A stretch of DNA of 64,000 nt from Eledone cirrhosa (lineage: Eukaryota). This document shows, in pieces, positions 1,056 through 50,600 of the stretch (the first letter of the stretch is position 1; each line of letters starts with the position of its first letter). The translations under genes and the position numbers were made by a program. The DNA lies in assembly GCA_964016885.1 (NCBI GenBank), contig OZ024749.1:29264001-29328000 (forward strand). Direction: 5' to 3'. Below the pieces are notes generated by a model. The model ran no database searches. It was given only the letters and a program-made list of their open reading frames with translations, and was not told the DNA's origin.

Positions 1056-2854
1056 CTATTTTCTTGTCGTTGTTGCTGGGTGTGTGTGTTTTGTTGTTGT
1101 GTTTGCGATGTTGGTGCTTGTGGTGGTGTTGAAGGTGTTGTTGTTGTTGGCGGTGGGGTTGTCGCCGGTGGTGATGGTGGTACTAGTGTGGGTGGTGATG
1201 GTGTTGGTGGTGTTGCTGCTGTGAGTCTCTTTGCAGTAACCTTTATCCTTTTTTTCATTTCTTTCCTCCCTTTTCGAAGGCGACGATGCGCTGCTTCTGC
1301 GTTTGTGCCTTCTTACGACCTTTTGCCATCCCTCTCCCACCTCACACTCCATGTCTGATTCTGTGAGGTCGGGGAGGGGTACCAGCACCACTCTTTCACT
1401 TGTTGTTGTTGGTGATGTTTCCTCTGGAGTCTCTGTTGCAACTGCATTTGGTATTACTGTTGTTGTTGTTAATACTTCCACTGCTGCTGCTGTTTTTGAT
1501 TTCCGTGGCGTGGGTATGGGTGCCACGGACCTATCGTTCCTGGTTGCCGCTTGTCCCGTTGCTGATAGCTGTGGAGCCGGTTTCGGAAGGAGGGGGCTTT
1601 TCTCCTTTCTCAGGGTCTTCTCGTTGCAGAAGGCCCTGAGGTGAGTCTTCGATCCACAGCGAAAGCATTTCGGGCGTTTGCCCTCAACACTTATGGGCAG
1701 TTGAGTGCCGGGATAGCTTCGATGCACTCCTGGTTGGTTTGGATTAACATCTCAATGGAGGTGCCGACCCAATCTTCTCTTACTTTTTTCTGTACTTGCA
1801 GTACAGTTGTTTTGTCCTCGATTCCGACGAGGACAGACGCAGCCAGCCAAGAAGGGGCCATCCCGGGGGGGAGGGGGACGTGGGTCAGTTTGACCCTCAC
1901 AATTTTTTGCCCGCAGTAGGAGGGCACCAACACCATTTCCTCGCTCCTTAGGGTCACTAAGGATTGAGCCTTTGCCTCCTGGGGTGTGGCAAAAAGCACG
2001 TCTACGGTGGCACATTTCTTGCCTCGGGTGATGTGCGTTTTCCGCTGCCACACAGACCCTAAGGCTTTTTGTATTTGAGCCTCTGTGGCTCTTTCAACCC
2101 TATGGGATTTTGTGCTTACTGTACGGTACGTGACCGTACAGTGCTGTTGGGTTTCGAAAAAATTTTCGGCTGCCTTGCAGATTGCTCGGTATCCGGTTTT
2201 TGTAACCATCTTCTTCGCTTCCTCTAATTCCTCATTTGTTATGAGGATGGTTTCCAGGTTCTTTGCGATACCTGCAAACGAGATTGGTTTTTCTTTGCTG
2301 GTGTTGTTGTTGTTGTTGTTGTTGTCGTCAGAGCTGCTGTTACTTTTGTTGTTGCTGCAGGTACTACGACTACTGCCGCCGCCGCTGTTGCTGTGGTTGT
2401 TGTTGTTGCTGTTGCTGCTGCTGCTGCTGCTGCTGCTGTTGTTATTGCTGCTAATGCTGTTGTTGTTTATGCTGCTGCTGATGCTGTTGCGGCTGCTACT
2501 GTTGTTTTCTTTGTCACTGTTGCTGCTGCTGCTGTTATTACGGCTGCTACTGCTATTATTCCTGACGTCAGACGAATGAAATGGGTTTTCGTATTTCCCG
2601 CACACCTTTTTTGTCGTTGTTGTCGTCGTCGTGGAGAAATCTTGCACGCTTTGCACGTGATTTTTCTTTTCTGGCGTCGCTTGCGAAAGAGAAGGGAGGG
2701 AGAGAGACACATTTAGAGAAGGAAGGGAGAGAGACAATCTTCTCTCTGCTGTAGTGACGATTGAGGAAGAAGAAGACGGAATGAGTTGGAGTGACCTATG
2801 AAAATTCTTTTTCGTAGCCATGTTTTTTTTTTGTTTAAAATAAATATTGGGCAC
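1056..2854 (-). pseudogene. LINE ORF1 (gag-like, zinc knuckle), split by a frameshift near 1690-1730, with Ser/Asn/Thr low-complexity tracts
   Basis: ORFs 1691-2854 and 1056-1727 overlap in different frames; the CX2CX4HX4C knuckle follows the shift. Confidence 0.8.
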
Positions 2855-3137
2855 AAAACCCCAATAAGCGGTTATTTAACCCCGAAGGGCCAAATAACGG
2901 GCAGAAAGACCCCTCTCACAAGGAGGAGGGTGTTTTTGTCTACAAGTTGGTTAAAGTTTTAAACAATTTACAATTGTTATAGCGGTCAAAATTTACAATA
3001 CCTTACAGAGCTGAGCCTCCGTCAACCATAGCATTCAATAATAATAATGATGAGAATGCTAATAATATTAATTTCTTTATTGGCCACGAGAGCCGAAAAC
3101 ATTGAAGACAAGGAACAGTTATATATGTATATATATA

Positions 3138-24907: not shown

Positions 24908-25017
24908 CATATATTAAAAAACATTCTTTCCCTTGTGCCTAAATTAGAAAAACCTTATTATTTAGTTTCTTCTGATGAAAATTCAATAATGTTTATATTT
25001 TCCAGAGTAAAGTGTGA

Positions 25018-26346
25018 ATGTCTGCCAAGATGTCATCTGTATGGAGTATAGTGTTATCAAGTATGTATATCAGTTTGCTCTTCTTAGCTCAACATTCTTT
25101 TATTGCTAATTCTGCTGACACTACTATGCCACCAGATTACAAGATGTCACCAGATTACGACAAGATGTCACCAGACTACGACAAGATGTCACCAGATTAT
25201 GATAAGATGCAACAATACAAACATCAGCTTTCTTTTCCAATTAATGACTTCACTTTAAAAATATTTCAACAACTTGTTGAGTCAAAGACAGGAAACATAT
25301 TATGGTCACCATTCCTAGTTAGTATGAGTCTCGCATTTATTCAGATGACTGATAGAAAAGCCTCTGCAGAGAAATTCCAATCTCTGATCTATCCTTCCGT
25401 ATCTTGGGAATTATTCCATCAAAGTTATACAGAATACCTAAAAACTCTCCAAGATGTACCAAAGTTCCAACTTTCTAATAAATTATATATCGACCCAGTT
25501 TTACTTCCTCAAATCAACACTAACCTTAGCAGATATTATTTCTTGGAAATAGATGAAATTCATCCTAGAACTATTGGTAAACTAAGTGAGAAGCTACATA
25601 AAAACAAAATCACCAACTTCATGGCATTTGGCAAGACAAATCAAGAAATGTTAGCTGTGTTGGTGAACAGCCTGCATTTCCAAGGATCTTGGAAACATCA
25701 GTTTAACAGGAAGTTTACAATGAAAGAAAACTTCTATGTGACAGAGACACAAGTGGAACCTATAGAAATGATGTATACCGAAGATTATTTCAGTATGAAA
25801 TCAGATGAACGTCTTAGCTTTAGGAGTTTAGAGATACCCCTGGTTGGAGACAGATTTAGTTTCTATATAATTCTTCCTGATGATCTTGAAGGAATTACAA
25901 CAATAGAAAACAAACTAACGTCACGATTGTTATGGCAAATTATTGCCAATAAATCTCCTCCTAGGAACGTTGCTTTGATTTTACCAAAGCTCCAGACGAA
26001 ATCTAATTTTACTTTTCAAGACATTTTATTCAAAGAAAAGATTAGCAGTGTGTTTGATCTGGAAAGTAACAATCAAACAAACCCAGACACACATTTAATT
26101 CATGAGCTACACCAAGGTTTTATCAATATCAATGAATTTGGAATAACAAGTAACCCTGCCTCTATGAGTAAATCAAGTCATTTGAGGGAAAAAAAGGCCA
26201 AATTTGATACATCTTTCACTGTTAATCATCCATTTTTATACTTTGTTGTTGATAAAACTTCTTTTATGATTCTACATGTGGGCAAATATACCAAGCCTGA
26301 AAGTGGTATGGTACAACAACCACAACATAACCATGATGAGCTTTGA
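25018..26346 (+). CDS. Serpin-family protein, 442 aa, with signal peptide and C-terminal HDEL ER-retention signal; CDS in one exon
   Basis: Serpin motifs NILWSPF, LVNSLHFQGSWKHQF, T...FYV, MM, LEIP, FYIILP, LPK, ININEFG, FTVNHPFLYFVVDK...ILHVGK. Hydrophobic N-terminus. A splice acceptor (ttttccag, ending 25005) just before the ATG implies an upstream non-coding exon. Confidence 0.95.
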   Translation: MSAKMSSVWSIVLSSMYISLLFLAQHSFIANSADTTMPPDYKMSPDYDKMSPDYDKMSPDYDKMQQYKHQLSFPINDFTLKIFQQLVESKTGNILWSPFLVSMSLAFIQMTDRKASAEKFQSLIYPSVSWELFHQSYTEYLKTLQDVPKFQLSNKLYIDPVLLPQINTNLSRYYFLEIDEIHPRTIGKLSEKLHKNKITNFMAFGKTNQEMLAVLVNSLHFQGSWKHQFNRKFTMKENFYVTETQVEPIEMMYTEDYFSMKSDERLSFRSLEIPLVGDRFSFYIILPDDLEGITTIENKLTSRLLWQIIANKSPPRNVALILPKLQTKSNFTFQDILFKEKISSVFDLESNNQTNPDTHLIHELHQGFININEFGITSNPASMSKSSHLREKKAKFDTSFTVNHPFLYFVVDKTSFMILHVGKYTKPESGMVQQPQHNHDEL

Positions 26347-26695
26347 TAATTTCTTTTAAAGCTTCTCTAATGATGGTGATATCTATAAATCTTGAAAAAT
26401 TAAATAACATTTTTACAGCTGATACCTATGTATGAAGATCAGCTGAAAAGTTCATAGGCTGATCAACATACTCTCATGGAATGACCAAATAAGGTTTATT
26501 TTTCAACATATTAGGGTCGGCTGACCAAATGAGATTTGTTTTTCAACATAATCCCTGGAAAGAAACAATGCAGTTATCAATAAGAGTTGAAATTACTGCA
26601 TGCAAAATTACACAGCTCTAACATCACCCCTTCATAATAAACCTATGCACTTTGTAGTTTTAGCTGACCTTCTACAAGGCTGTTTCTCAGGTGTT

Positions 26696-28404: not shown

Positions 28405-28467
28405 TTATTCCAATTTCAAGTCATTGATTGCTTTCATAATTTCATTGTACTTGGATACTTTCTCTAT
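28405..28467 (-). CDS. EIF2A: eIF2A last coding exon ([20 protein letters not shown])
   Basis: Acceptor tttcag; TAA at 28405-28407; AATAAA on - near 28272-28281. Confidence 0.9.
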   Translation of the reverse strand: MEKVSKYNEIMKAINDLKLE

Positions 28468-31400
28468 CTGAAATGGAAATAAACAAATATATCATCAATA
28501 ATCAATCAATCAATAATTTATTTTATTTATTTAACTCTTAACGTCCTGTACCACATGAAACCACATTAGCAAAACATTCTTGAAAACTATATACAAAACA
28601 CTGAGTCCACCCTGTAAGGTCGTTGTGTTGGTGACACCACAAAAAGTACCCAGTTCAGTCAGTTCGTTGTTTTGGTGCCACGACAAAAAGTACCTGGTCC
28701 ACCTTGTAAAATGGTCATCTTGGTGCCAAGATAAAAAGCACTCAGTCCGCCTTGTAAAGTAGTCATGTAGGTGACATGATAAAAAGCACCCAGTTCACCT
28801 TGTAAAGTTGTCATCTTGGTACCACAATAAAAAGCACCCAGTTGACCCTATAAAGTGAGCATGTTAGTGTCACAATAAAAAACACCCAGTCCATGCTGGT
28901 TGGTGTTAGGAAGGTCATCCAGCTGTAGAAACCAAGCCAGAAACAGTTCTGTATAAGCAAGACACAGTCACCTGATCTGACTTGTCTCACATCAGGACAA
29001 CTCATCTAACCCATGCTAGCGTGGAAAATGGACGTTAAACGGTGATGATGGCTGTCATCTCCCACTATCTCTCTCTCTCCAATCCAATGTCCAAACTATC
29101 CTTACCTGGCATTTATCCAGAGTTTTCCCAGATTTCTGTTCTTCCTTCAGTTTATTGATCTGAGTAAGTTTCTGGGAAGAAATAAAAAACACAGAAATTT
29201 CCATAAATATAACAACAGCATCCTAATATACAGTTTAACATAGTGCAGCAATAATACAGATTGTACAATCACAAACACACACATACAATCCTATCACATG
29301 CATACCCTCACACCTCATATATAATCCTATCATACACATACAATCTTATCACATATATACACACAGACATATAAATATATATATAGCCTCATAACATGGC
29401 AGGCCATCTAACCCATGCAAGTATAGAAAATAGACATTAAACAGTGGTGGTGAAAGTGGTGATGATGGAGATGTTGGTAATAATGATGAAGTTGTTGGTG
29501 AGGTTGTTAATGATGATGAAGATGTTGATGATGGTGATAATAGTTCTAGTTATGTAATTTTACCTTCTTTAAGTTCTTTATTTTCTTACTTTTATCACCA
29601 TCTCCTGCTTCAGAATTGGTTTTCTTCTCAACAGTGACTGGTGCTGGGTCAGAGTTGTTGGCTTGTTGATTCTTAAGTAAAAGACAAAAAAAAAAAAAGA
29701 CTTCAATGGCTATTCCACAACCCCTCTGGTATTGTTGCCATGAAAATACACCCAGTACACTCTCTAAGATAGTGCTTGTGCTATGATAAAATACACCAAG
29801 TACACTCTGTAGAGTGGTAGTGTTGGAGCTATGAGGAAATACACCTAGTACGCTCTGTAAAGTGGTAGTGCTGGTGCCATGAAAATATACCTGTAAGGCA
29901 GTAAGTATTGATGCTATGATAAAAAAGCAACCAGTACACTTTGTATGGTGGTAGTGCTGGTGCTGCAAAAAATGTTCCCAGTAAATCCTGTAGGGGGTAG
30001 TGCTGGTGTTATGATAAAATGCAACCAATACACTCTGAAGTGGTTGGTGTTAGGAAGAGCATCCAGCCATGAAACCATATAGAAAACAGAATTCATGAGA
30101 GCTAGACATGGTCACCTGACCTGTCTAGCCCCATAACCCATGCAAGTATAGAAAATAGACGTTAAAAAATGGTGATGTTGATGATCATGATTCCAGTTAT
30201 ATAATTTTACCTTCTTTGAATTCTTTGTTTTCTTATTTTTCTCACTATCTCCAGTTTCAGAATTGGTTTTCTTCTCAACAGTGACTGGTGGTGCTGGGCC
30301 AGAATTGTTGGTTTGTTGATTCTAAAGTAAAAGGAAAAAACACAAGAAAAATAACTTTAACTCTTTAGTTACTAATCCAGCCAAAACCAGCGCTGGTTCT
30401 ATGAAATAAAGCCACCCATTTTTAAAGTTTCCAATTTAAATTAAAATCTTTCAACATAATTTTATATAAGAACCTTATATTAAGTTACTATCTTAGTAAT
30501 GAAATAATTAATACTTTTAGTAAATCCCTCAAAATTCTTCATTAATTAATTAAAATACGAGTGTATTTCATTAGAAATGTGGTCATGAAAGAGTTAATGA
30601 TCATTTCAATGGTGTTTGTCACCATTTCTCATAGATACAGACATGGCTGTGTGGTTAAAGAGTTCACTTTGGAACTATGTGGTTTTGGGTTCAGTGTCTT
30701 TTACTATAGCCTCCACTTGACCAATGCCTTGTGAATGGAATTTAGCAGTTAGAAACCCTGCTTCTATTATCCCCTACCATCTTGTCTTGGAGTAGATAGA
30801 TCAGAACAGTGGAGCAATAATAGTCACTGTTATTAAACTCAACTGATGAATGGATTATTTAGTGAACTAATATAAACTGAGGTGAAACTCAACTAGTGGT
30901 GATGGTGTAGATGGTGGTTGTGTTGGTAGTGGTGGTGGTGGTGATACTGGTTGTGCTGATGGTTTAGATAGTGATGGTGGTTGTGCTGATGGTTTAGATA
31001 GAGATGGTGGTGGTGATAGTGTTGGCGGTGCTGGTAACATGGAAAAATGGACATTAAACAGTGAAGATGATGGTGGTGCTCCTAGATATATAATTACCTT
31101 CTTTGAATTCTTTGATTTCTTATTTTTCTCACCATCTGCTGGTTCAGGATTAGTTTTCTTCTCAGCAGTGACTGGTGCTGGGTCAGAGTTGTTGGTTTGT
31201 TGATTCTAAAGAAACAGAAAAAGACAAACATAAGAAAAAAATCCAACAATTGTTCCACTGCACACCCCCAACACTAACCATGCCACCTCCACTATCACAC
31301 GCTAGTAGCTATCTCTCCACACCTGTGTACACCCCCTCACCCATCCCTCTCTGCTATCACATCTTAACTATTCTCATCATCACTACACTATCAGAGGTTA

Positions 31401-32914
31401 CTGCATCACCTCCCACCACACTTGCCATACAGCCATGACATCAGACTTACACTGTAAAGTGGTTGGTAATTGGAAGGGCATCCTGCTGAAGAAAGCTTGT
31501 CAAACAAAGAGTAGGGAGGACCTTTGAGTTGTGCCAAAAACTCGACAGTCTCTCTAGTGCTGGTGATCTACAAAATAAATGCACCCAATACACTCTGTAA
31601 AGTGGTTGGTGATAAGAAGTGTATCCAGCCATAGAAAGATTGCCAAACAAAGGGTTGGGAGGACCCTTCAGTTGTGTCAAAGAGATGACAACCTCCCTAG
31701 TGTTGGTACCAAGATAAGATGTACTCAGTAGAACATGGGACCCTATGTAAAGGAGATGCAGGCTCCTGACCTGTCTGGGAGGTCAGTGGCTCCACTTCAG
31801 TAGTGTGAAGACCCGTGCAACCCTTGCTAGCAGGAAAAAATGAACCTAAATGATTATGATGGAATACATATATAATCTGACCAATCCAAGCATAGAAAAT
31901 AGATGTTAAACAGTGTTGATAATAATGATGATAGTGGTGGTGGTGGGGGTGATGATGCTAGGAATAATGGTTGTAGCGATGGTGGTGGTGGTGGTGATAG
32001 CTGTGATGGTGATGATGTTCCCAGATATATAATTACCTTCTTTGGTTTCTTATTTTTCTCACCATCTTGTTCAGGATTAGTTTTCTTCTCAACAGTGACT
32101 GGTGCTGAGCCAGAGTTGTTGGTTTGTTGATTCTAAAGAAACAGAAGACAAAAACATAAGAAAAATAACTTTAAAAATTGTTCCACTGCTGTTTGTCACC
32201 ATTGACTACCCTACAGATAGGGGTGTTAACCCTTTCATGATCACATTTCTAATGAAATACTCTCTATTTAAATTAATTAATGAAGAATTTCAAGGGATTT
32301 ACTAAAATTATTCATAATTTCATTACTCAGATAGTAACTTAATGTAGGATTCTTATATAAAATTATGATGGAAAATTTTAATTTAAATTGGAAAACTTAA
32401 AAATAGGTGATTTTATTTCATAGAACCAGCCCTGGTTTTGGCCAGGTTGGTAATTAATGGGTTAAAGGTGGTGAGTTAGAGGGGTGACCTCCAGTAGTAT
32501 GGAAAGCTACTGTGATAATGATTGCAATGATGATAAATGTAGTGATGGTGATGTTGGAAGCAATCGTAAAGGTAATGGTGGTAGTGGTGGTTGTGTTGGT
32601 TATGATGATAATGGTGATGATGATGATGATGATGTTCCCAGATATATAATTACCTTCTTTGAATTCTTTGATTTCTTATTTTTCTCACCATCTCCTGTTT
32701 CAGGATTAGTTTTCTTCTCAACAGTGACTGGTGGTGCTGGGCCAGAGTTGTTGGGTTGTTGATTCTAAAGAAAAGGAAAAAAACTTTAAAGACCATTCCA
32801 CTGATATTTGTCACCATTTCACAGAATGTTATTAATGTATTGAGAATGTAATCGATAGCAGTTACGCAGCTCCTAGTCTCGACAAAATACATCCATTCTG
32901 CCATGCATGCTCAG

Positions 32915-32947
<33 letters not shown>

Positions 32948-35900
32948 ATGTATGTTTATATATGTGTTTATATATATATATCTAACCCATGCTAGCGTGC
33001 AAGATGGACGTTAAACGATGACGATGATGATGATGATGATGTATGTATATGTATATATATATATATAGATATACACATACATATATATATATATCATCAC
33101 CATTTTACGTCCATTCTTCCACACTAGCATGGGTTAGACGGGTTATCCTGTTGTAGGCAGTGCCTGGTCTTGCTGTGTGTGTATATATGTATATGTATAC
33201 ACATATATACATATATACACACATATAATCTAACCCATGCATGGAAAATAAACACAAAACAGTGACGATGGTAGTGATGATGATGATGATGATGATGATG
33301 GTGGTGAATCCAGATATATATAATTATATAATTACCTTCTTTGAATTCTTTGATTTCTTATTTTTCTCACCATCTCCTTGTTCAGGATTAGTTTTCTTCT
33401 CAACAGTGACTGGTGGTGCTGGGCCAGAGTTGTTGGGTTGTTGATTCTAAAGAAACAGAAGACAAAAACATAAGAATAATAACTTTAACACCATTGACCA
33501 CCTTACAGATGGGAGTATATTAAGGGTGGCCGCCAGTAGGATGGTGGATGCCTCTTCCACGGGTCCCAGCAACCAATATGTCATGGGAGAGTGAGGGTGG
33601 AACATCATTAGTGCAGAAAGCTACTGAGATAATAGCTAATCGCGATATGACTGGTGTGTCAGGGTTATAGTGAGGGATTTATCAAGAGTAGGAAGTTGGA
33701 TGCCTCTTCCACAGGTCCCAGCTACTGATGTTTCTCTGCACTTTAATCAGCTGTCATCTTTCATTCACATCACATGTCCATACCAGTGCAGTCTTCTCTC
33801 TTGCTCACTACATCCAATTCCTCTTATGTTCACTTATACAAAGTCATTCATGCACACTAACATTACACATCCATCGGAGCATACTCACTTCATTTTTTTC
33901 TAGCCGTCCCAGGTCTTCTTCAATCAAGGCCCATGTTTCACTGCCATGTAACACTGCAGTTCACACGTGTCATACAGTTTATCCTTCACTTGAAGAGAGA
34001 CCCCCCTTTGTTGTCAGCAGAGGTCCCATCACCCTAAACTTCTAGCCTGTTTTTACACTGGCTATCACATTTTCAGAGCATACTCTTCTACCTAGGTAAC
34101 AAAAGCTGTCATCAACTTCTAAGGAATCTGCCAGGCCACTGAGGGTATTAATTTCATGTCAGCTTTTAGTGCTTACTTCTTCTGCACATCTGCCACTTAT
34201 AAAATCGATGTTCTCCATTAACTTGCTAATAATCCCACACCTCTTGTGTCCAGGAATGTACAAGCTAGATTTGGTCACCTGATTGATCTAGTCCCAGAAT
34301 GTGACAGCCCATCTAACCCATACAAGCTTGGAAAATAGACAATAAATAGTGATGGTGGTGATGATGATGATAGATATTGGTTGTGATTATGATGATGATG
34401 ATTCTGGCTGTGTCATTTTACCTTCTTTGGATTCTTTGTCTTCTTATTTTTATCAACATCCGTTTCAGAACTGGATTTCTTCTCAACATTGACTGGTGCT
34501 AAGCCAGGGATGTTAGGTTGTTGATTCTAAAGGAAAAGGAAAAAACAAAATAACTTTAATGATCGTTCCTCTGTTGTTTATCATCTCTTAGATACAGGCA
34601 TGGCTGTGGTGCGGTATATATCTAGTTATTGTGAGTGGTGTGTGTGTGTCTTTCTGTTTGTTTATGTCCCTTAAAATAATTAGGCTTGAAAACATAAGTA
34701 CATGGGGGTTGATATAATCAGCTAAACCTTCTTAATGTGGTGCCCCAGCATGAAACCAGTTAAATAATAACAGAATCAAGTTACCTGTTTCTGAGCTTTT
34801 GACTTCTTATTACTCTTCTTTCCAGTGTCGGCAGAATAATCTGTTTAAAAGATTTCAAACTTTTGTAAATTTGATCTCATCAGAAAATTTCAATTTATAC
34901 TTCTGAAACAATTTAACCCTTTTGAAACCAACCTATCGGACATTGCTTCTTCCAATTCTTTAATCCTTTAGCATTTAAACCGGCCGTATCTGGCCAGAAT
35001 TCTCTTACCTCTTTCTCTTCAAACCAGCTGTAACCAGCCACTCGTACTGACATTAGGGTATGGTTCTCAAAGTAAATAATATCAAAAAAATCTTGTAGAT
35101 TCGATATTATTTGAGATAAAGCCTTTACCATGAAAATATAATAGTATATATAAAGTAATGTAAATGCTAAAGGGTTAATACAATTAACCTCAATTTTAAT
35201 TTAGAACCTGCCCTCATAATCTTATGTATAAACATTCTAATATGTTCCAAACACACATTTAATTCTTTTGAGACCATCCCACCAGACACAGTTTCTGATC
35301 TTTGATACAAATAACCTCAGGTTTAAACTGTTTAAATTTAATTTAAAAAACCTTCTTCTTCTTCGCTCACTTATTCCTGGGAGAGTTGTGGTGGCAGTCT
35401 TCAAGAACTTCTTCCAGTAGGTCTTGTCAGAAGCTACTGTCTCTATTTCATCCGGCTGGATCCCCAAGATGTTATCCAACCATCTTGGGTCTCCTGCCAG
35501 TTGGTTTTGCCCATAAAATCTGTCCAGTGATTCTTTTGTGAGTCATTCTAGCCAATTTAAAGCCCTCCATCATAATTTTATATAAGAGCATTTTGTTATG
35601 TTTCAAACACAAACTTAAACCTTTTGATACTTCATACCAACCCACCAGAAACCATCCATGTTCTATGAAATAAAATTTGCCCATTTTAAAGTGTTCATAC
35701 TTATATTAAAACCTTTCATCATAATTTTATGGAAGAACCTTTGTTAAGTTATGTTCCAAAAATCTTACTAATAGAAAAGTTTTGATTATTTTCAAAATTA
35801 TCTGAAACACATTGGTAGCGTCTTTCAGTTGAAATATGGCCAGGAAAAGGTTGAAGAAAAAAACTGAGAAATGTTAATACTTACTAAGACCTGGGATTTT

Positions 35901-38900
35901 CTTATTCGAAGGGGGTTCAAATTCATGTAACTTGAATTCTGAAGCAGGCTGATCCCGAGCATGTGGGGGGCGATACGCTGCAACTGGTTTCACTATAAAA
36001 ATATACAATTTTTTAAAGATATTTTAGACTGTATTGACAATGACTAAGATTATTCCATGTAATGATTTGATATTTTAAAAAATATAAATGCAACTGCAAG
36101 TACAGTTACAAACAGTATTTATGGAAAGCAACACATGACTTACATACGAGCTAACATTTTAGACATATTTGATATTTCTTAATATAAATGCAACCGCAAG
36201 CAAAGTTACAAACAGTATTTATGGAAAGCAACATCTGATTTACGTGACAGTCAAAGGATGAAATAAAAATATTATAAACCCCAAAAGTGACTTATCTACA
36301 AATATATATATATACAGTAGTTATAAAATGTAGTTTAGTTTAAACACCTGTCTGGGCTGGTAGTGAAGACCCTACTTTCTTATAGGCGATAGGTTTCACA
36401 GGAAATTTTCCTTCCATATCTGGCATCCACAATGATTCCCATAATTCTTTGCCAGATGCTATATCCAGCTCGGCCAAAATAGTGCCAGTATAATGCCATA
36501 TTTTATACCTGAAATGGAATTAAGTAAAAATTAAAAATAAAATATTGAAAGTTTTGTAGAAAGATTCAACTTTTAGAAATTACAATATTTTGAAAGAATA
36601 ATTGAGGAATATTTTATCTTTTTAATAAACAACAACAATAACAACAAACATTTTAAGGTGGGGGTGATAGACTTCATACTTATGATGGGGTCTTAGTTGA
36701 AGATATGGAATATTTCATACATACAAAAAGGAGAATAGTGACACACAGGGATATAGTGTATCTATTGTAAACTAGATACACATAAGATACAGTGTACCTA
36801 TTGTAAACCTGATACACACAGGGATATGGTGTACCTATTGTAAACCTGATACACACAGGGATATGGTGTACCTATTGTAAACCTGATACACACAGGAATA
36901 TGGTGTACCTATTGTAAACCTGATACACACAGGGATATGGTGTACCTATTGTAAACCAGATACACACAAAGATAGTGTACCTATTTTAAACTAAACACTC
37001 AGGGATATTGTGTGCTTATTGTAAACCAATCTACTACCTTTAATAATAATAATAATGGTTTCTGATTTAGGCACAAGGCCAGCAATTTGGGGAGAAGAGA
37101 AAGTCGATTAAATCGATCCCAATGCAATGCTGGTGCTTTATTTATCGACCCCATAAGGATGAAAGGCAAAACTAACCTCGGCAGTATTTGAACCTAGAAC
37201 ATAAAGGGCCACGTAACTCTATGCCACGAAGCATTTGGTCTGATGCTCTACTGATTCTGCCAATCCATATTAATAACAATGGTTTCTTATATAGGCACAA
37301 GGCCAGCAATTTGGGGGGAGAGGACAAAGTCGATTATATTGTCCCCAGTGCATTACTGGTGCTTTATTTTATCGATCCTGTAAGGATGAAAGGCGAAGTT
37401 AACCTTGGCGGGATTTGAACTCAGAAAATAAAGGGACGTAACTCTAGGTTGCAAAGCATGGCATCCGATCCTCTACTGATACTGCCAAATAACGATGATA
37501 ATAGTAATAACAATAATGTATTTACCCATTGCCAACACGAAGTCTAGGAGCCATTGTTGCTGTAATAAAGTGTACCCCATCAGGACACCAACAGAAATAA
37601 GTTGTATCCATGGCTTTAGTAGAACTGATTATTTTCTGCTGTTGAACATCCCAGAATTCCAGGTCACCTTGGAGATTACCAAATCCAGCCAGGCACAAAA
37701 GTTAAACAGTTAAGTACAAATAATTAGGGATTCTATTGTCACAGGTACCCATATGATCCCTGATGAAGTCATATGGGTACCCTCATGTTAATGTCAGCAT
37801 GGACATGTTGGATGTAAGAATGATGAGTGTGATGGTGATAGGGGAGGGAGGTGATGCTAATTATGATAATGGTGATGGGTGTGGTAGTGATGATAAAGAT
37901 GACGGTGGTATGATGTTGATTATGATGATGGTGAAAATGATAGAGGTAAAGATGATGATGGCGGTGAAGGTGATGGTGGTGGTATGGGGGATGTGATGAT
38001 GATGATGGTAGTGGTGGTATGGGGGGAATGATTATTATGATGATACTCCTAAGGCAAGCCATTACTCTGACCCCCCCCCCCCTTTATGTAAAATATAATT
38101 GAAAGAGCAAAGGATATTGTTTCCCTGAGGATTATAAAAAGCTGAGTTCCTGGCTGCTGTTCCATAGTCAAAGACTGGATCACATTTCAGGTTATAGACT
38201 GTAGCTTTGGCTGGCATAACTGGTGGTCACTGGTTAAGGAAGAAATACTACTGGCAGAACAGCAGATTATTGGAATAGATGAAAGCAGAATGTAGGAATA
38301 AATCATTGAAATATTTCAAAAGCATGTCATGAGGTTTATTAATGAGAAAGACCTAAATAATACAGTTAATACACCTACAAACTACCTGCATCAGTTGTTA
38401 GCTGTCGGGACATTGCATCCTTCAAATCATCCATGCTTCCTGAAATTTGCCAACACTACACCTGATATTCCCCCTCCATAAACACGCACACATGTATCTG
38501 TGTGTATATCATGACTCATACACAGTTCACTTTCCTAATATGTGTACATTATTCTATGTACTATTGTGAGGGTGGTGAATTGGCAGTATTGGTAGAGGGT
38601 CGGATGCCATGCTTTCTAGCATAGTTACGTCCCTTTACGATCTGAGTTCAAATCCCATTGAGGTTAACTTAGCCTTTCATCCTTATGGGGGGTCAATAAA
38701 ATAAAGTACCAGTAATGTACCGGGTATTTGTTGGCCTTCAGCCAAAAGTAGAAACAATTATTCTCTGTACTATTCATGCACCTTTGATGATTTGTAGTGC
38801 ACCTGAGCACTGTACACAATAATCTCCATTATTATTATAAGAAATGACAACAAATTTATGAGCATGTGGTTAGAATGTCTCAGGAAACAATCGCTGGACA

Positions 38901-41078
38901 GATTTTACAAGCAAAACCAACCAACAAGAGATCCAGGAGTAGACCCCAAGCAAGATGGTTGGATAACATCCATGAGCTTGGCTGGTCTCGTTTGGGGATC
39001 CAGCCAGATCAGTTGGAGACGGTTGCTTCTGACAGGACCTGCTGGGAGGGTTTGAGGACTCTGCCCCCAACAACCCTCTCAGGAATAAGTGGGAGAAGAA
39101 GAAGAACCTCAAACTGTTTGGCCACATCATACACTCAAATTGTGGTCTTTCTCTCTCTAAAATCTGTTTTTTGGGGGAGCAGGTATGATTCTAGGACAAA
39201 TAAACTAAGGACATCCCCAATGGTAGAGAGAGAGACCAGATCCTAAGATGGTCTCAATGGAAGAAATATGTTAATGATGTTTTATATAAAGTTCTTTTGT
39301 CACAACCTGTGACATTATCAATGGCTTTGTGGTTCTCATGCACATCCCCATCACCAGCAATTACACTCCATCTTCATTGTCTGTTTCTCAGAGCCAAAAC
39401 CAAAGTGAAATACAACCAGAATGTGTGTGTGTGTGTTTATTAGCTGTGTGTGTGCTTATTGGCAGTGTAACTAAAATACCACAATATCTGTTTCAACACC
39501 ATATCTTTCAAATTAAAGAAAGAACCTTACAAAACAAATACAAAAACATTATTTAGAAGAATGCAGAGAAAGGATACAGCCATAAACCACACAGAACTGG
39601 GTAGAATTGGGATGCCATTCTACACAATATACAGGACCATCTTTGGCTGAAAGTAAAATAATTTATATAAGTTTACTCAAATATCAGAAACAATAAAATA
39701 TCAAAGATCTATACTTTAATGGTTTGTTCCCACTCAGGAAAGAATAGCTGGACAGATTTTACAGCCAAAACTAACTGGCAGGAGACCCAGGGCTAGAAAC
39801 CCAAGCAAGATAGTTGGATAATATCCATGGGCTCATCTGGTCTCGCTTAGGGATACAGTTGGATTAGTTGGAGATAGTTGCTTCTGACAGGACCCACACT
39901 GAAAAGAGTGTTTAAGGACTCTGCCCCTCAAGAATAAGTGGGTGAAGAAGAAAAAGATTTATGCTTCATTCATCACCATTACTCCAGCTCCCATTATTAT
40001 AATTGTCAAATTTTAAACCTTTTCATGTTGGCAGTTATATCATCATCATCATTTTATGTCCCCCTTTTCCATGCTAGCATGGGTTAGACAGGTATTTTCC
40101 AGCACAACATTCCCCTGTTTGTTGTGTTCCTTTATCATCTCTGTTCGCTTCAGCAAGCAAAGATCATTTCTCATCACCTTTGCCCAAGTCTTCCTCTACT
40201 ACAACTACCTTCCACTAGGATTTCTTGGAAGGTTAACCATTTCAATTACCACCTTTCTAATAAAATACACTGTATTTTAATTAATTAATGAAGAATTTTG
40301 AGGGATTTACTAAAATTATTAATTATTTCTTTACTAAGATATTAATTTAATGTAAAGTTATTATATAAAATTATGTTGGAAAATCTTAATTTGAATTGGA
40401 AATTTTTAAAATGGGTGGTTTTATTTCATAGAACTAGAGCCGGTTTAGTAACTAAAGGGTTAAATAAACAAGATAAAGACATTAAATGATGATGATAGAC
40501 ATTCAAAAGAATTTAGGAAGAAATTCTAGAAAAAATAGTTTTGTATCATAAAGCCAGGGATGGTGTCAAGTAATTTTGTATCTTAAGTGTTAGTTAACCT
40601 TTGAAAAAGATTATATAATCAATGCAAATATTTACCTCTGGGCACAAGGCAACCTTCACCTTTTATGCTAAGGTAATGAAGCCCTGTCTCACCATAGTAA
40701 GACTTATCTGATGTTTCAGTCGATGTAATTACAAGCAAACCAGTACCTGTGGGCAAAAGTAGAAGAGAAAGAAATGAATAGATTATTGGAGTTTTCCTAC
40801 TATATCTAGCATTAAACTAATATATTTTTTCATTATACTGAATTGTTTGCTTTGTTGTTTGTTTTTTTTGCATATATGAGGGTTGGCTGAATAGTTCATA
40901 GGTTGACTATGAAGGAGTGATACTAGAGCAGTGAAATCTTGCATGCATTAATTTCAACTCTTATTAATAATTGCATTATTTATTTCTGGTGACTATGTTG
41001 AAAAATAAACTTCATTAAGTCATTCCATGAGAGTATCTTCGTCAGCCTATAAACTTTTCAGCTGACTCTTGTATGTAT

Positions 41079-41123
<45 letters not shown>

Positions 41124-44100
41124 AGAGTCAGCTGAAAAGTATATATATAGTGTTGGTATCTTTAAGAAGCAGAATGTTAATAATATGAACAATAATAATT
41201 GTTTCTACTTTAGGCACAAGGCCAGCAATTACCCAGTGCATTACTGGTACTTTATTCTATCGACCCCGGAAGGATGAAAGGCAAAGTTAACCTCGGTGAG
41301 ATTTGAACTCAGATCATACAGGGAGGTAACTCTATGCTTCAAAGCATGGCATCCGACCCTCTACCGATACTGCCAATCCACCGCCTTGACAATAATAATG
41401 ATATATATGTATGTATTATGTGTGTGTATATTATATATATATATGTATACTTACCAGCTTTATTCCAATACATTGTTGTTTTATCAGCTTTAAAAAAGCT
41501 TTTATTTGCCAGGGGGCATCCATTAAAGTTGGGATATTTGAAAATTCGAACATTTGATGGTTGGCCCTGGAAATATAAGAATGTTTGAGGAATTTGTACT
41601 TTACAAACAACAAACCTTTTAACTACCTAAATACACTACCACCACTACTACTACTACTACTAACACTACTACTGCAACAACTATCATCATCACAAGTAAT
41701 ACAACCACCAACACTACCACTACCACCCTCACTTCTACTACAACCACCAACACCTACCATAGCCACCACTACCATAACTTCTACTACAACCAAAACTACA
41801 ACTACTACTAAAGAACTATTTCAAAATAAAATCTCACCTGTCCACCCCCAGTCACCACCACCCACAATATCAAACATAACATAACATAAGAAGATCCTAA
41901 AACTTACCTTACTGCCAGGAATATAAATAGCAACATGGTCACTCTTAGAAAAGCCATATTCAGAGATTTTGGCAGCATGAAGACGTGTCTTTGGTGAATC
42001 TGGAAGAAATTCAATATATATAAAATTATTCCTATACTTTTTCAATATTTAAATATTATTTTGTTTTTGTTTTTGTTTGAAATTGAAAAAAAAAAAAAAA
42101 AAAAAAAGAAAACCCCTGGAATTTGGGGCTCATATCTCTACAGGTTTAGATTGGCCTGCTACGAGACTTCTTTCATGGCTTCCAACCACTTTACAGCATG
42201 TACTGGGAGCTTTTTTCATGGCACCAGCACTACCACTATACAGCATGTACTGGAAGCTTTTTTTGTGGCACCAGAACTACCACAATACAGCATGTACTGG
42301 GAGCTTTTTTTTGTGGTACCAGCACTACCATCTAAGAGAGTGGATTGAGTGCTTTATGTCATGGCACCAGCACTACCACTTTACAGCACGTACTGGGAGC
42401 TTTTTTCATGACTGCAGCGCTACCACTATACACCATGTACAGGGAGCTTTTTGACATAACACCAGCACTACCACTATACACAGTGAACAAGGTTCTTTTT
42501 TCGTGGCACCAGCACTATCACTATACAAAGTGAATTGAGTGCTTTTTGTCCTGGCACCAGGACTACCACCTTACAGGGTTACTTAGCTGATTTTTCTCAA
42601 CTATTATTATACTCATTTGCATTAGGACACACACATTTCGAATTTCAATAACAACAACAATAATAATAATTGTAAACAAACCAAAGTTTCCATTTTCATA
42701 AAATTCCACATCGTTGTTATGGAGACGAACCATTAGTTTGTCATCTGGGGTCCAACTAGGTTTCCTTGAAAGAGAAAATAAGATAAGGTTTTCAATAGAT
42801 TTTCTTTACAATCAATTGACAAGATCCCAGACCTCATTTGCTTACTGAGTGTGGTGGACCTCGTCAAATTGGACCAAGGGAACAATGTTTCCATTGGTCT
42901 TTCTATTGTTAATACTATCTAGAGTGGACCTTGTCAAATTGGATCAAGGAAACAATATTTCTATTGGTCTTTCTATTGCTAATACTATCTACTGGTCACA
43001 ACATAAAATAAAATATCTTGCTCAAGGACATAATGCACCCCCCCCCCCCCCCCACCCCACACACACACTTTACAGAGTATATTAGATGCATTACTTCTTG
43101 ATAGAAATTTTTATGGAAAATTTTTAATTTAAATATGTATATTTTAAAAGTGGCTTTTTTATATCATATTTGAAAAGTGGGAGGGGGGGAGGGACGTAGT
43201 TAGAAAAGGGTTTTGTATCATAGAAAGAGAGAGGAAATATTTAGAAAAGGGTTAAAACTTACCAATCAGACATCCTTTTGTGGAAGAATCCTTTCAATAG
43301 TTTACCTGTAGCGGTTTCCCAAATGCAGAGGTTAGGAACATCTTTCTTTTGACCTAGGAAAGAAAATTAGTTCTATATATAACAATTATTTCTGATTTAG
43401 GCATAAGGCCAACAAATTAGGGAGATGGGAAGGTCGATTAAATCAATACTAGTGCATTACTGGCACTTTATTTCATCAATCCCGTAAGGATGGAAGGAAA
43501 AGGTAATCTTGGCAGGATTTGAACTCAGAATGTTAAGGAACGTAACTATATGCTACAAAGCATTTTTTCTGACACTCTATCGATACTGCCAATTCCTCAA
43601 TAAGAATCTTTATTGTACATAAATATCGTCATCATCATCATCATTTAACATCTATTTTCCACGCTAGCATGGGTTAGACGGGAATTGTCCCACTTGAGGC
43701 AAGATTGGTCGGGTGACCATATATATATATATATATTTTGAGTTTATGTTGGTTGTATACCAACACCTCAGTATGCAGGCTGGAGCACTCGACGAAGTGC
43801 GCAGGTTGGTTTGGTTACTCCGGAGTAGTGTAAAATAAAGTTAAATAAAAGTCAAATGATTAAAATTTAGCTTCGTTTATTACTGCTATATATATTTCAG
43901 TGACAGCCATCTTTGGCTGTGACCTCTTCAGGCAGTTTGAATTAGTATGGTATAGACAAGTACATATGTTGTTTAGGTGTATAATATTGTCAATACTCTG
44001 ATATGACCAGTTCCTTGTTGGGTTGTTAATTCACTGAGGAACTGGAGTCATATCCATATGACTCCAGTTCCCCAGTGAATTAACAACCCAATAAGGAACT

Positions 44101-44600
44101 GGGCATATCAGAGTATTGACAATATTATACACCTAAACAACATATGTACTTGTCTATACCATACTAATTCAAACTGCCTGAAGAGGTCACAGCCAAAGAT
44201 GGCTGTCACTGAAATATATATAGCAGTAATAAACGAAGCTAAATTTTAATCATTTGACTTTTATTTAACTTTATTTTATATATATATATATATACATATA
44301 TATGTGTATGTATACATATTTATATGTACATACAAGGGTATGCTGAAAAATTCATAGGCTGATTATGAATGAGTGATGCTAGAGCTGTGAAATCTTGCAT
44401 GCATTATTTCAACTCTTATTAATAACTGTATTACTTCTTTCCAGAGACTATGTTAAAAACGTAACCTCATTTGGTCATCCCACGAGAGTATCTTGGTCAG
44501 CTTATGAACATTTCAGCCGAACCTCGTATATATACAGGGTCCCAAAAAATGTATACACACTTCAGCATTCTAATATATGTATATATTTCTGTGGGACACC

Positions 44601-44644
<44 letters not shown>

Positions 44645-47600
44645 AACATCATCATCATCGTTTAATGTACATCTTCCACACTAGCATGGGTTGGACAGTA
44701 TATATATACATATATATACATCATCATTTCATTTTACGTCCACTTTTCCCTGCTTGCAAGGGTGGGACGGGAACTGATTCTGGCTTGATTTCTACAGCTG
44801 GATGCCCTTCCTAACACCAACCTCATTTACAGTGAGTGCTGGGTGCTTTTTTTCCGTGGTACCTCCACGACCACTTTGCAGTGGAATGATAGGGACCCCA
44901 GTCCCTATCATCTCATTTCTACAGCTGAGTAAACTGGAGCAATGTGAAATAAAGTGTCTTGCTCAAGGAAACAACACATCACCCGGTCTGAGAATTGAAC
45001 TCACAACCTTTCGATTGCAAGCCCAATGCTCTAACCACTAAGCCATGTGCCTCCATACATGTGCATACATACATGTATATATAAATGTAGCTGTATAGAG
45101 CAATGTGTACTTACTGGATATATCGGCAGATATAAGATATGTTCCAAGTGGTGAAAATGAAAGGCCAGATATTTTAGATTTCTCAATTGTGATGACCTTC
45201 TTATAACCACTGGTCTTCATGACAGTGATGCTGAAATAGTAAAATACCATTATTAGAATTACAACTACATAACCAATGGTGAGATAGAGACATCGTTGAT
45301 AGAGAATTCCTGCTTCTGGTATGAATGAAAGTATTTTAGAAACCCCATCATGGATTGTGGAGAGACTTTGTCAGGAATGTTTGACCATGGTCACAATGAT
45401 GTGAACACTTTAAAACAAAGTTTCTCTTCATAACACCAGGGGTAGCTTCAGACAGTTTGATAACAAAAAAGGTTAAGATTTAACTGTTTTAATGCGATGA
45501 CATTAATACTTTCATAAAAGTCATAGAAATCACTAAAATAAAGTGAAATAAACGAAATTCCTGGCAGGAAACTTCTATAAACAATGTCTGTCAACTGTCT
45601 CATGTGATTCACAACATTAATGATTTGTGAGGAAGTCACTCGACTTTCAAGAAGACAGCTAGATTTAAAACCCTGATATATCATCTCTGTAATGTTTTTG
45701 GTTACATGATCATGGCTGATATATACTGGAGACACATACTAAATGAATCATCATCATCATCATTGTTTAACGTCCATTTTCCACATTAACATGGATTAGA
45801 CGTTCTGTCTCGTTGTAAGACAAGCCAGGTCAGAGGACCATGTTTTGTTCACCCAGAACTGATTTTGGCTTGGTTTCTATGCCCTTAACCCTTTAACATT
45901 TAAACCGGCCGTATCTGGCCAGAATTCTCTCACTTCTTTCTGTTCAAACTGGCTGCTTGTACTTATGTTAAGGTATTGTTCTCAAAATAAATAATATCAA
46001 AATCTCATAGATTCGATATTGTGAGGTAAAGCCTTTTCAGTGAAAATGTAATAGTATATAGAGAGTAATGTAAATACTAAAGGGTTAATATCTATATTGG
46101 CTAAAACTATCAAGGTGGTCAATAGGCTGTCTAATACAATAAGATGACAGGAATTCATCTAAAGCAAAGTAACATCTGAATTCTTACCCTTCTTCATCGC
46201 ACGAGGCAAAATACTGGCCATTCAAAGAGAAGGCCATGGCACGACATTCCGAGTTTCCATCCCTTGAAGAAAGAAAATAAGAATATATTGATGAAGGTAA
46301 AACTTAACTGTTTCCTTACCAAATATCTTTCAGCACATTCTTGTATGAACACTAATGATTTTGAATTAATTTTGAAAATAACCAAGAATGAAGGTATTTA
46401 GTAATATAACTAACTTTCTCAATATTAAGTTGGTGTTTGGAACATAACTTAATGAAAGTGTTTATATAAAAATTATGTTGGAAGGTTTTTAGATAAATAT
46501 ATATACTTTAAAACAAAGAGTTTTGTATCATAGTACCAGAGTTATTTGGAACATAAAGGTTCTTTCATAAAATTATGATTGAAGCTCTTTAGATTAATAT
46601 AAATACATTAAAACAAATGGTTTTGTATTGAAGAACAAAGAGTAGTTTGGTATCAAAAGGTTTTAACTCTTTCATTACCAACTGAGCCAAAACCAGCCTT
46701 GGTCATATGAAACAAAATTATCCATTTGAAAAGAGTCGTATGTTAAATATAATTTTCCAACATAATTTTATATAAGAACCATAAGTTAAATTAGTAATGA
46801 AATAATTAATAATTTTAATATATATCCTTAAAATTCTTCACTAATTAATTAAAATAGAGTGCATTTCATTAGAAAACAAATTTTCTAACAATGGCAAAAT
46901 TATTTGAACAGTGGAGGAGATGCCTTGCAATATTTATTCCAGTCTTGATGATCTGAGGATATTGTTCCCTCTCCTCCTCCCCTTCCTAGTCTTGGAGACC
47001 CAAGAAAAGGGCCATCAGTATTGCTCTTTCTTCACTGACTAAAGAGTAAAACAAAAAATATCTTCAGCAAGCCAAACCCTTAACCCTTTTGGTTCTATGA
47101 AAGAAAACCACCCATTTCAAACAATTCCCATATAAATTTATATCTTCCAACATGATATTATACAAGAACCATATTTTAAGTTAATATATTAGGAATGAAA
47201 TAATTAATCATTTGAGTAAACCTTTCAAAATTCTGCATTAACTAATTGAAACGGAGTATACCTCATTATAATTACAGTAACGGAAGGATTTATCTCACAT
47301 ATATTAGGATCCTTGTAAAATATTTTACATACAAAGATTACTTGTACACTATAATTAGCATATAATAATGGTTTCTGCTTTAGGCAAATGCCACAAATGT
47401 TTTGGGGGGAGGGGAAAGTCGATTAAATCGACCCCAGTGCATGACTGGTACTTTATTTTATTGATCCTGAAAGGATGAAAAGCAAAGCCGACTTCGGTTA
47501 CATTTCACCTTAGAATGTAAAGAGCTGGAAACAAATACTACCTAACATTTTATCCAACACTTTAATGATTCTAGCAACCCACTGCTCTAAATGTGCAATA

Positions 47601-50600
47601 AAAATAGTATGGCATGGTCCTGTAAGTTCTGATGGAGTCGTAGGCACACCATAGTGGCATACAGCATTTCTTGGGCACTTAAGCCTGACAGAAGAACCAA
47701 TCCCTCTCCAGGTCAATAAAAAATGAGAACAGTTAAATGAAAAGGAAAAGTAAATATAATAAATATAAACTTGCCCTCGAAATACTTCTTTAGATTTGTT
47801 TGGAGCACCTTGAAGGACCCAAACTCCATCTGTACCACGCACTGGAAACATAAAAAATTCATTTATGAAGTAAAAGGTCAATAATTTTTTTTTTAAAGCC
47901 AGTACAATGCGGTAGGAAAATACAAAGGGCAAATGACAAATGAAACAAAACAATTTGAAGTAATTTTTTTTTTACACAGTATATTTCAGGGTTATTATCT
48001 TTTCAAACGTGGGACTGAAACAGTTCAAGACAAAACCATTAGAAAACTCTGAAAATGAAGTAGTGTAGTATTAACTACACTACTCTATTTTCATTTATGA
48101 AGTCTTTCTAAATTTATTGTTGTTTAAAGACACTAGATTAACCCTTTAGCATTTAAACTGGCTGTATTTGGCCATAATTCTCTCACCTCATTCTGTTCAA
48201 ACCAGCCACAACTGGCTGCTCATAACGATGTTAAGGTATTATTCTCAAAATCAATAACATCATCAAAATCTCGTAGCTTTGATATTATGTGAGATAATAC
48301 AATAGTAAATATAGACTAATGAAAATGCTAATAGGTTAAAGACATTAGATTAACTTATAAAGATGAAAACTGAAGGAAGGATGATTCCAAGTGGTTAATG
48401 GGCTGGTTTCATGATGATAAGGTTGTGGGTTTGATCCCTAGATAAGGCGGGATGTTGTGTCCTTGAAAAAGGTTCTTCATTTCATACTTCCACAGTTCAC
48501 TCAGGTGAGAGAGAAAGAAATGAATACCAACAACAATCTTTCCAAGTGAAAGTATTTACTATCAGCAAATCCAGGGCCTTCTCACTCCCGTTGAAGGAAC
48601 CTCTTCCTGGTTGACCTTGACTGCTGTTTCCTATCTCTGGCTATACAGGGCCATGTAAGGCAAAGATATCAGGTCAGATCATCGCGCCATCTGGTTCTTC
48701 TTCACTGTTTTGGTGTCCACACTGTTGCTCTAACAGTCTACCTATTGTCCCTGAAACAAGAGATCTAGCCAACCCATTTATGTTTGCCCTTCTTGGTGGT
48801 CTTGATTATGTCCTTTACTCCAGTCAGCTGTCAAATCCAGGTGTTGCTCTTGTTGTCACGTAAGGTGATGCCGAGCATGATTTGCTCCATTTTACATTGG
48901 GCCACTGCAGTGATCTTCTTTAGTGTCTATGTCTCACTTCCATAAGTCATTACCAGCAGAACATATTTATTAACCCTTTAGCATTTACATTACTCTATAT
49001 ATATTATTGTATTTTTGTGGTAAAGGCTTTATCTCACATAATTATCTCGCACAATATCGAATCTATGACATTTTGATATTATTTATTTTGAGAACAATAC
49101 CTTAATGTCAGTATGAGCAGCTGGTTATGACCAATTTGAACAGAAAGAGGTAAGAGAATTCTGGCCGGTTTAAATGCTAAAGGGTTAAACAATTATATCC
49201 CATATATCCTTCCATACTTGTCTGTCAATCCACGGGGACTCAGTATTTGTCAGTTGCTCCAAATATGATCCATGTTAATGCTAGGACACTGGTCTTTATC
49301 TGTGAGTATCATAGTTTTAGAATAGACTCACTGTGTATCACCACATGTTGTTGGAGGTGACTAAAATGAGGGGGTAGGGTGGGTGTGAAAGGAAGGACAA
49401 CTGGCTGTAAAACATTGCCTTAAAAACACCTGTCCAATACATAACAGTTTGGAAAAGTGGGGCATAGTCAACAATAGATCTCAAATGAAGAAAATGAAAA
49501 TACCCAGTCAAATCCACAGAGATTCATCGAGTATCATCATCATCATCGTTTAACATCCATCTTCCATGCTAGCATGGGTTAGACGGTTTTGTTCCATTTG
49601 ATGCAGGAATGGTCGGGAGACCATGTCTCGCTCATACGGAAATGTCTCTGGCAGGTTATTTTACAGCTGGATGCCCTTCCTAACACCAACCACATTTACA
49701 GTGTGGACTAGGAGCCTTTTACCATGTCTCCTACACAACACCTTACAGTGTGGACTGTTGTGTCATCGACACAGTGGACAGAACGGAAAAGAGAGAATGG
49801 GGTGTGGGTGGGGTGTACATTGGGTATATATACTTGATGAATATGTGGATCTGACTGGATATTTTCATTTTGTGAAGGCGCATGGCTGAGTGGTTAGAGA
49901 ATTGGATTCACAATCGTGAGGTTGTGAGTTCGATTCCTAGACCAGGCGATGCGTTGTAACTTTGAGCATGACACTTTATTTCACGTTGCTCCTTCTACTT
50001 GGAGTTGCAACTGATAGATAGTATTAGCAATTGGAAAGACCAATGGAAATATAGTTTCCTCGGTCCGATTTGAAGAAAGTCAATCGACTGTCGATATACA
50101 TATATATATATACAGGGTGTCCCCAAAAATGTATGCACACTTTGATTACCTGTACAGGCAATATTTATTAGAATGCTGAAGTATGTATACATTTTTTGGG
50201 GGACACCCTGTAATTATATATATGTATTAAAAACAACACGAGGTTTCTCATTAAGGCTTTTATTGATTCTACACAGTTACGGCCGTTTCATAGATGGGTG
50301 GTTCAGGGTCCATGTTATTATAGACCAGACTCCAACCCAATCTGTTCATCAGACTTGTTAATCAAGAAAAACCAAAACCTCATATATATATATACACACG
50401 TTGGGGTTAGGATGAGAGCAAAGGTTACGGTTAGAGTCGGTTCATGTGTGTTTATGTATGAATATGGTCGGAAAATGTGCAATAAATCCAGTGAATTGGA
50501 CGAGATATTTTCGTTTTCTTCAAACCAGATCTATTGTCCGTGATACTCGAGAAATGGACGTAAAAACAAAGCTTTAGCCATTACATAATTAAATACACAT

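Follow-up and report, generated by a model that had tools for sequence, protein, structure and literature searches.

The stretch of DNA analysed in this study, a window of 64,000 nucleotides from Eledone cirrhosa, carries a gene for a serpin (P0001) which is a real and conserved octopod protein, predicted to reside in the endoplasmic reticulum (ER), likely disarmed as an inhibitor and with its inhibitor ancestry still traceable. The sequence evidence presented below indicates that the protein probably no longer traps proteases covalently. As to what it does instead, a reversible binder of proprotein convertases is the most likely reading, which we hold tentatively.

The elements of the locus, with coordinates referring to the window, are as follows.

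24991..25005, forward strand: pyrimidine tract with AG, a predicted splice acceptor (sequence).
25018..26346, forward strand: serpin open reading frame P0001, 442 aa (open frame, Pfam, orthologues, read contigs).
25030..25116, forward strand: predicted signal peptide, residues 5 to about 33 (hydropathy; same position in orthologues).
25126..25209, forward strand: 21-bp tandem repeat encoding SPDYDKM, about 3.5-4 copies (repeat and alignment).
26332..26346, forward strand: HDEL and stop codon (sequence, orthologues).
26399..26404, forward strand: first candidate poly(A) signal, ATTAAA (motif alone).

All 442 codons lie in one open frame closed by HDEL and the stop codon. The predicted splice acceptor is located 12 nt upstream of the first ATG; because its tract and AG end at 25005, the entire coding sequence is probably contained in a single exon. 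Translation probably starts at Met5 (25030), since this position matches the starts of the orthologues and has the better initiation context. The N-terminus contains a 12-residue hydrophobic stretch (mean hydropathy 2.1), and four N-glycosylation motifs are present in the protein. The SPDYDKM repeat follows the predicted signal peptide directly and in frame, lengthening the N-terminal end of helix A; in the three orthologues described below the unit is not repeated and one unit-like stretch is found instead. Residues 76-427 match the Pfam Serpin family PF00079 with 192.9 bits (cut-off 27), and tblastn detected a single serpin within the window. An earlier note on this DNA had described a serpin with a signal peptide and a terminal HDEL here; the frame and the Pfam match bear out the serpin and its HDEL, and the hydrophobic stretch fits a signal peptide. 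Structure prediction, which the note had proposed as a check, returned a serpin fold (pLDDT 84.5) with an exposed loop of low confidence, the best structural match being antithrombin (Z 40.2, rmsd 2.9 over 363 residues).

Contigs of four sequencing runs (2 samples, 1 study) cover positions 25167-26489 with 0-1 differences each, none of which falls on the hinge, loop or HDEL codons. At position 25276 the contig of one run has A for G, which would change Val87 to Ile, a possible allele or error. The contigs break within the 21-bp repeat and none of those listed spans it whole, so the copy number given above is that of this assembly. A sequencing artefact or a pseudogene was ruled out by the conservation of the orthologues together with the contigs of the four runs.

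The 3' neighbour of the serpin is convergent:

28405..47850, reverse strand: eIF2A gene (four segments match PF08662).

Its stop codon lies about 2.06 kb from that of the serpin. Nesting of the serpin in an eIF2A intron was ruled out, as the last eIF2A exon ends at 28405. Deuterostome neuroserpin orthologues are linked head to head with PDCD10. Within eIF2A, one exon is present seven times in tandem at positions 29564-34526 of the reverse strand. The copies measure 96-111 nt, in every case a multiple of three, are bounded by AG and GT, have an open frame and encode the linker and the beginning of the C-terminal helix; they may serve as cassette exons or have arisen by recent expansion. A further eIF2A exon lies at about 35.9 kb. 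Elsewhere in the window we noticed a reverse-transcriptase frame at 5700-7940 (reverse strand; RVT_1, E 5e-26), probably of a LINE-type element, and long low-complexity frames at 1059-2875 (reverse strand), which have no Pfam match above the cut-off and may be a related first open reading frame. An 81-bp tandem repeat at 60743-61125 (4.7 copies, 98% identity) has frames open on both strands and matches no Pfam family.

When 5.8 billion proteins were searched, 2,002 candidates yielded 6 matches, three of them close: Octopus sinensis XP_029648140.1, O. bimaculoides XP_014785748.1 and Argonauta hians GAB1599160.1. These proteins are 64-72% identical to P0001 over the alignment and are probable orthologues, having the same HDEL, the same proline at P10, the same gap at helix F and the same loop, and differing from P0001 by threonine at P14 and by the absence of both the arginine before EKKAK and the SPDYDKM expansion. 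Their automatic names (ovalbumin-related protein X-like, leukocyte elastase inhibitor) reflect the best match and not function. The combination of HDEL and P10 Pro is not a matter of chance, since it recurs in 3/3 named orthologues and P10 Pro was found in 0/106 other serpins aligned. HDEL is exactly terminal in all four octopods, while the tail just before it drifts.

The earlier note had read the hinge as E373-F-G-I-T-S-N-P-A, with Ile at P14, Asn at P11 and Pro at P10, and had placed REKKAK late in the loop (residues 390-395); both readings agree with the sequence. Judging by the four octopod proteins, two of these residues are lineage-specific traits. Ile at P14 is present only in P0001, the orthologues having Thr there (3/3), which rules it out as the key lesion, so the loss of inhibition cannot be attributed to it as a shared cause. 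The arginine of REKKAK occurs in 0/3 orthologues, with Ile, Phe or Leu in its place, and a furin site of the R-x-K-K type was ruled out on this ground.

No paper was found to name the orthologue accessions, and the gene is undescribed in the literature searched on the serpins of octopuses, on invertebrate serpins with an ER tail and on ER serpins that do not inhibit (mostly the main texts of open-access papers). The portions available of PMC4199593 and PMC5736919 contain no description of a gene of the P0001 type; the O. vulgaris 'Serpinb10' of the latter source was set aside, as its primer lies on a canonical hinge and it appears to be another gene. A search of the Atlas returned generic serpin clusters only.

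The loss of protease trapping was assessed on an alignment of the four octopod proteins, a sister pair (P0010 and P0165, introduced below) and 106 single-domain serpins picked from 281 by similarity, hence biased towards the consensus. Three features of P0001 are needed here.

25315..25317, forward strand: Leu100, replacing the conserved shutter Ser (alignment).
25543..25611, forward strand: region from s1A to helix F, 7 residues short and with consensus residues lost (alignment, models).
26134..26163, forward strand: hinge P17-P8, with Glu and Gly kept (alignment).

The alignment has 87 consensus columns, defined by conservation of 75% or more. The octopods retain 44-50 of these residues, compared with 72 and 74 in the sister pair and at least 61 (median 80) in the background serpins. 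Of the 87, 36 are lost in all four octopods; P0010 and P0165 both retain 28 of these. The losses are concentrated in the parts that move: of the 46 positions belonging to the hinge, the hI-s5A loop, sheet A and helices B and F, 26 are lost from every octopod protein, compared with 5 of the 29 that belong to the B/C barrel and helices G and H (Fisher p=0.0008, the region borders having been drawn after seeing the data), so that the conservation of shutter, breach and helix F typical of inhibitory serpins was not found. The sister pair has no such skew (8/46 vs 3/29, p=0.5). Among the residues lost are the shutter Ser, the Gly-Ala of helices B-C, the helix F motif, the hI-s5A loop and P12-P10. 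The shutter position is Ser in 88% of the 106 serpins and Leu in 4/4 octopods. The stretch from s1A to helix F has 24 residues, where the pair has 31 and 105 of the 106 others have 30-32, a gap of similar kind being present in one unrelated protein; in the models helix F is 12 residues long, vs 15 in P0010. Model confidence is lower at helix F and at the hI-s5A loop, which may merely reflect poor alignment support.

At the hinge, all four octopods have Ser at P12, Asn or Ser at P11 and Pro at P10. They depart at P12-P10 from the inhibitory consensus E-x-G-T-E-A-A-A-A, as given in the available text of PMC8233489, and have the P14 Thr in three of four. According to the parts available of PMC7782431, hinge mutants and deletion of helix F convert PAI-1 into a substrate. 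In the portion seen of 10.1101/452375, antitrypsin with Gly-to-Arg at P10 is cleaved and not trapped, and antichymotrypsin with Arg at P10 keeps some inhibition. Our literature search found no report of a proline at P10 in serpins. A P10 proline and added loop length would be expected to give substrate behaviour as well. On the other side stand Glu at P17, Gly at P15, His365, Asn217 and Ser97-Pro98, all kept, and the P14 Thr of the orthologues. Taken together, these data make it likely that the octopod serpin would no longer form covalent traps. The non-inhibitory character proposed in the earlier note is supported by sequence on broader grounds than the hinge, namely the 36 consensus losses, helix F and a shifted bait.

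To place the octopod serpins, a profile of the four proteins was run against 1.84 billion representatives, and the best 150 of 19,722 matches were rescored per domain. In this set P0010 stands out with 262 bits, vs 178 for the next single domain. Kinship with the top profile matches of 740-1,180 aa was ruled out, their rank being the sum of two domains (in P0009, 132 and 123 bits per domain). These long proteins (P0009, P0011-P0016 and others) contain two or three tandem serpin domains, and several resemble fused gene models. P0010 and P0165 are 74% identical to each other; no named Octopus protein close to P0010 was present among the best 120 of 442 matches. Each is hydrophobic at its N-terminus and carries a canonical hinge, an ER tail (HDEL or HEEL) and a bait that ends in KRR-S or EKR-S and has its Arg at a distance of 17 residues from the hinge Glu. 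As canonical, KR/RR-bait, ER-tailed serpins they are predicted to be of inhibitory type.

The four octopod proteins group with this pair both in a quick tree, built on 49 of the 281 proteins (SH-aLRT 97), and in a tree of 26 rows (SH-aLRT 99.3, UFBoot 100); the deeper placement in the quick tree is weak (SH-aLRT 89-90), and both trees were built without HSP47, neuroserpin and Spn4A sequences. As a check against a long-branch artefact, shared rare residues were counted. The octopods have 99 invariant residues that other serpins seldom carry; 24 of these recur in P0165 and 20 in P0010, compared with at most 12 (median 3) for the 106 others. The octopod stem measures 1.18 vs 0.38 for the pair in the 26-row tree and 1.65 vs 0.45 in the 49-row tree, the octopod tips are near 0.2, and relative-rate tests gave p<=0.003 in 15/15 outgroup combinations. 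By these estimates the octopod stem evolved about three times faster and the protein then stabilised.

The segment in which the two types of loop can be compared is the following.

26170..26202, forward strand: distal loop K385-K395, including K392-K393-A394 (loop alignment with the sister pair).

The bait of the pair fits the octopod loop best at an offset of +4 in 8/8 pairings, and because of this the octopod K392-K393-A394 is taken, on the alignment, as the descendant of the KR/RR-S bait. Its Lys393 stands 21 residues from Glu373 (17 in the pair), that is, with 4 extra residues before the bait. The suggestion of the earlier note that REKKAK is a relic of a convertase bait holds for KK-A and fails for the Arg, which lies outside the relic. 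Since the sister pair has an ER tail and a KR/RR-S bait together with a canonical hinge, and since KK-A falls on that bait in the alignment, descent of the octopod serpin from an ancestor of the convertase-inhibitor type is supported. Several other serpins were seen to combine an ER tail with a bait of basic residues (P0042, P0052, P0057, P0066, P0067, P0092 and P0143; named sources are one crinoid and two bivalves, for 3 of these proteins), and the inhibitory ER type appears to be widespread in invertebrates.

The mechanism which we propose begins with import into the ER and retrieval by HDEL, as the motifs would imply, of a protein with a predicted serpin fold and an exposed loop. Insertion of the loop into sheet A would be blocked or too slow, because of P10 Pro, the shutter Leu, the short helix F, the lost hI-s5A motif and the move of the bait from 17 to 21 residues from Glu. 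Change of Arg to Lys at the ancestral P1 may then slow cleavage, so that the loop could serve, without being consumed, as a competitive decoy or zymogen escort; this is the weakest step. The outcome would be a binding protein of the ER and early Golgi whose conformation is fixed and which holds a basic-site convertase reversibly through the Lys-Lys loop. A Lys-Lys pair slows cleavage by convertases and can serve as a reversible inhibitor, as in 7B2. This parallel was not found in the portion available of the review PMC7481362.

A convertase is favoured as the partner because the distal loop is still 9/15 invariant in octopods, E-K-K-A-K included, while two other loops drift (6/16 and 9/22), and because Lys at the old P1 would slow the cleavage of an unsprung loop. 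The distal loop is as conserved as the octopod proteins overall (231 invariant columns over 385 residues) and not more so. The region hG-hH-s2C, the densest besides s1C-s5B, exceeds it with 26/34 invariant, which fits a new partner equally well and counts against a convertase. An ER chaperone or escort, equally non-inhibitory, for a new octopod client that is neither protease nor collagen, bound through the barrel or the helix G/H face, with Lys-Lys merely inherited, is accordingly a serious possibility, and a new client elsewhere on the serpin is nearly as likely as a convertase partner. Such a protein shares all the evidence for lost trapping and would explain the fast stem followed by stasis, the many octopod-invariant residues missing from the sister pair and the conserved hG-hH-s2C region; what it accounts for less well is the loop, E-K-K-A-K included, which is kept across Octopus, Argonauta and P0001 to a greater extent than would be expected if it had no function. 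A covalent suicide inhibitor with an atypical hinge, directed at convertases through Lys393 or at a chymotrypsin-like enzyme through Leu389 (residue 17 from the hinge Glu), is unlikely. It could call on the P14 Thr of the orthologues, on small residues at P12, P9 and P8, on several retained shutter residues and on the fact that substitution at P10 is not always fatal, but would have to operate with the P10 Pro, the shutter Leu, a helix F region 7 short, no hI-s5A motif and a 4-residue insertion. The tolerance of Ile at P14 in the species of P0001 also argues against it, as does, for Leu389, the residue following it, which varies between Arg, Ile, Phe and Leu. Least probable of all is that HDEL is not used, the protein being secreted or stored (e.g. 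in relation to gland or egg) or the main transcript ending differently. The four N-glycosylation motifs fit either fate, yet the exactly terminal HDEL of 4/4 octopods, the ER tails of the sister pair and a coding sequence apparently in one exon speak for retention.

The other partner to be considered is collagen, as the earlier note had suggested an analogue of HSP47, presented in the parts available of PMC5583329 and PMC10119292 as a non-inhibitory serpin that is confined to vertebrates and ends in [RKH]DEL. According to the available part of PMC8301893, HSP47 grips collagen on sheet C, where Asp385 is essential and Leu381, Phe382 and Tyr383 are adjacent. The corresponding strand of P0001 is:

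26212..26226, forward strand: strand s1C, S399-F-T-V-N403, at the collagen-contact positions of HSP47 (length match, alignment).

Residues 399-435 were mapped on chain positions 347-383 of the HSP47(36-418) construct, which are of equal length. On this equal-length mapping Leu381, Tyr383 and Asp385 become Ser399, Thr401 and Asn403 in 4/4 octopods and an invariant Phe400 falls on Phe382; Thr and Asn at these positions are common to the inhibitory-type sister pair too. The C-terminal half of P0001 gives HSP47 41.8-43.7 bits, antithrombin 41.5 and the best match 68.5. The structural match to HSP47 has TM 0.70-0.74, vs 0.74-0.84 for the other serpins listed, and HSP47 is absent among the 60 matches listed for P0001, the 60 listed for the profile and the 50 listed by VIA. 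On sequence and models, therefore, the octopod serpin does not appear to be a member of HSP47, and the likeness is one of architecture alone; this much of the note's proposal stands, while the mapped collagen contacts are absent and unrelated serpins are at least as close as HSP47, both in sequence and in fold. A convergent octopod chaperone of the procollagen triple helix, derived from an ER convertase inhibitor and using a surface other than that of HSP47, is very improbable. It would have the same architecture as HSP47 (PMC5583329, part available) and would fill a role left vacant by the reported absence of HSP47 from invertebrates (PMC5583329, PMC10119292, parts available). Against it are the replaced contacts, although other residues could serve a convergent binder, the bits and TM values, and the direct binding of collagen IV by fly TANGO1, from which, in the portion seen of PMC10119292, invertebrates may need no such protein. 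Nothing positive points to collagen as the partner. If such a chaperone does exist in octopods, serpins would have given rise to a collagen chaperone twice, the second time by convergence and in a lineage from which HSP47 is reported to be missing.

In the literature searched, as far as the texts were available, HSP47 is the sole non-inhibitory ER-retained serpin described. A second one would reveal either that convertases are controlled reversibly in the secretory cells of octopuses or that there is a new ER client. The canonical ER-tailed serpin and its fast-evolved octopod derivative, in which address and fold are kept and the trigger is changed, offer a before/after pair for the conversion of a suicide inhibitor into a binding protein.

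Among known systems, the C-terminal peptide of 7B2 and proSAAS resemble the proposed reversible convertase binder as secretory-pathway proteins which inhibit prohormone convertases reversibly through a basic pair, and are unrelated to it in sequence and fold. HSP47/SERPINH1 has in common with the octopod serpin a signal peptide, a loop of non-inhibitory type and the [RKH]DEL tail; it differs by 4 coding exons and 3 introns (PMC5583329, in the part available), where P0001 apparently has one coding exon, by the mapped collagen contacts, which the octopods do not have, and by the apparent descent of the latter from a convertase-bait serpin. The closest parallel is provided by the ER-tailed serpins with a KR bait, which inhibit convertases in lancelet and fly (PMC2556349, PMC3252376, available portions). 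Lancelet Spn-1, sea-urchin Spu-Spn-1 and Drosophila Spn4A (neuroserpin lineage) have the signal peptide, ER tail and dibasic loop motif found here, and the serpin core of the sea-urchin and anemone genes is intron-free (PMC2556349, part seen), as in P0001. The sister pair P0010/P0165 has every sequence hallmark of these ER-retained convertase inhibitors. The octopods retain the predicted signal peptide and a terminal ER-retrieval tetrapeptide (4/4), but where a convertase inhibitor of this type has a dibasic bait whose P1 Arg is 17 residues away from the hinge Glu, they have Lys393 at a distance of 21 residues; KK-A replaces KR/RR-S 4 residues further out, the hinge has S-S/N-P instead of A-A-A, and the shutter and helix F are altered.
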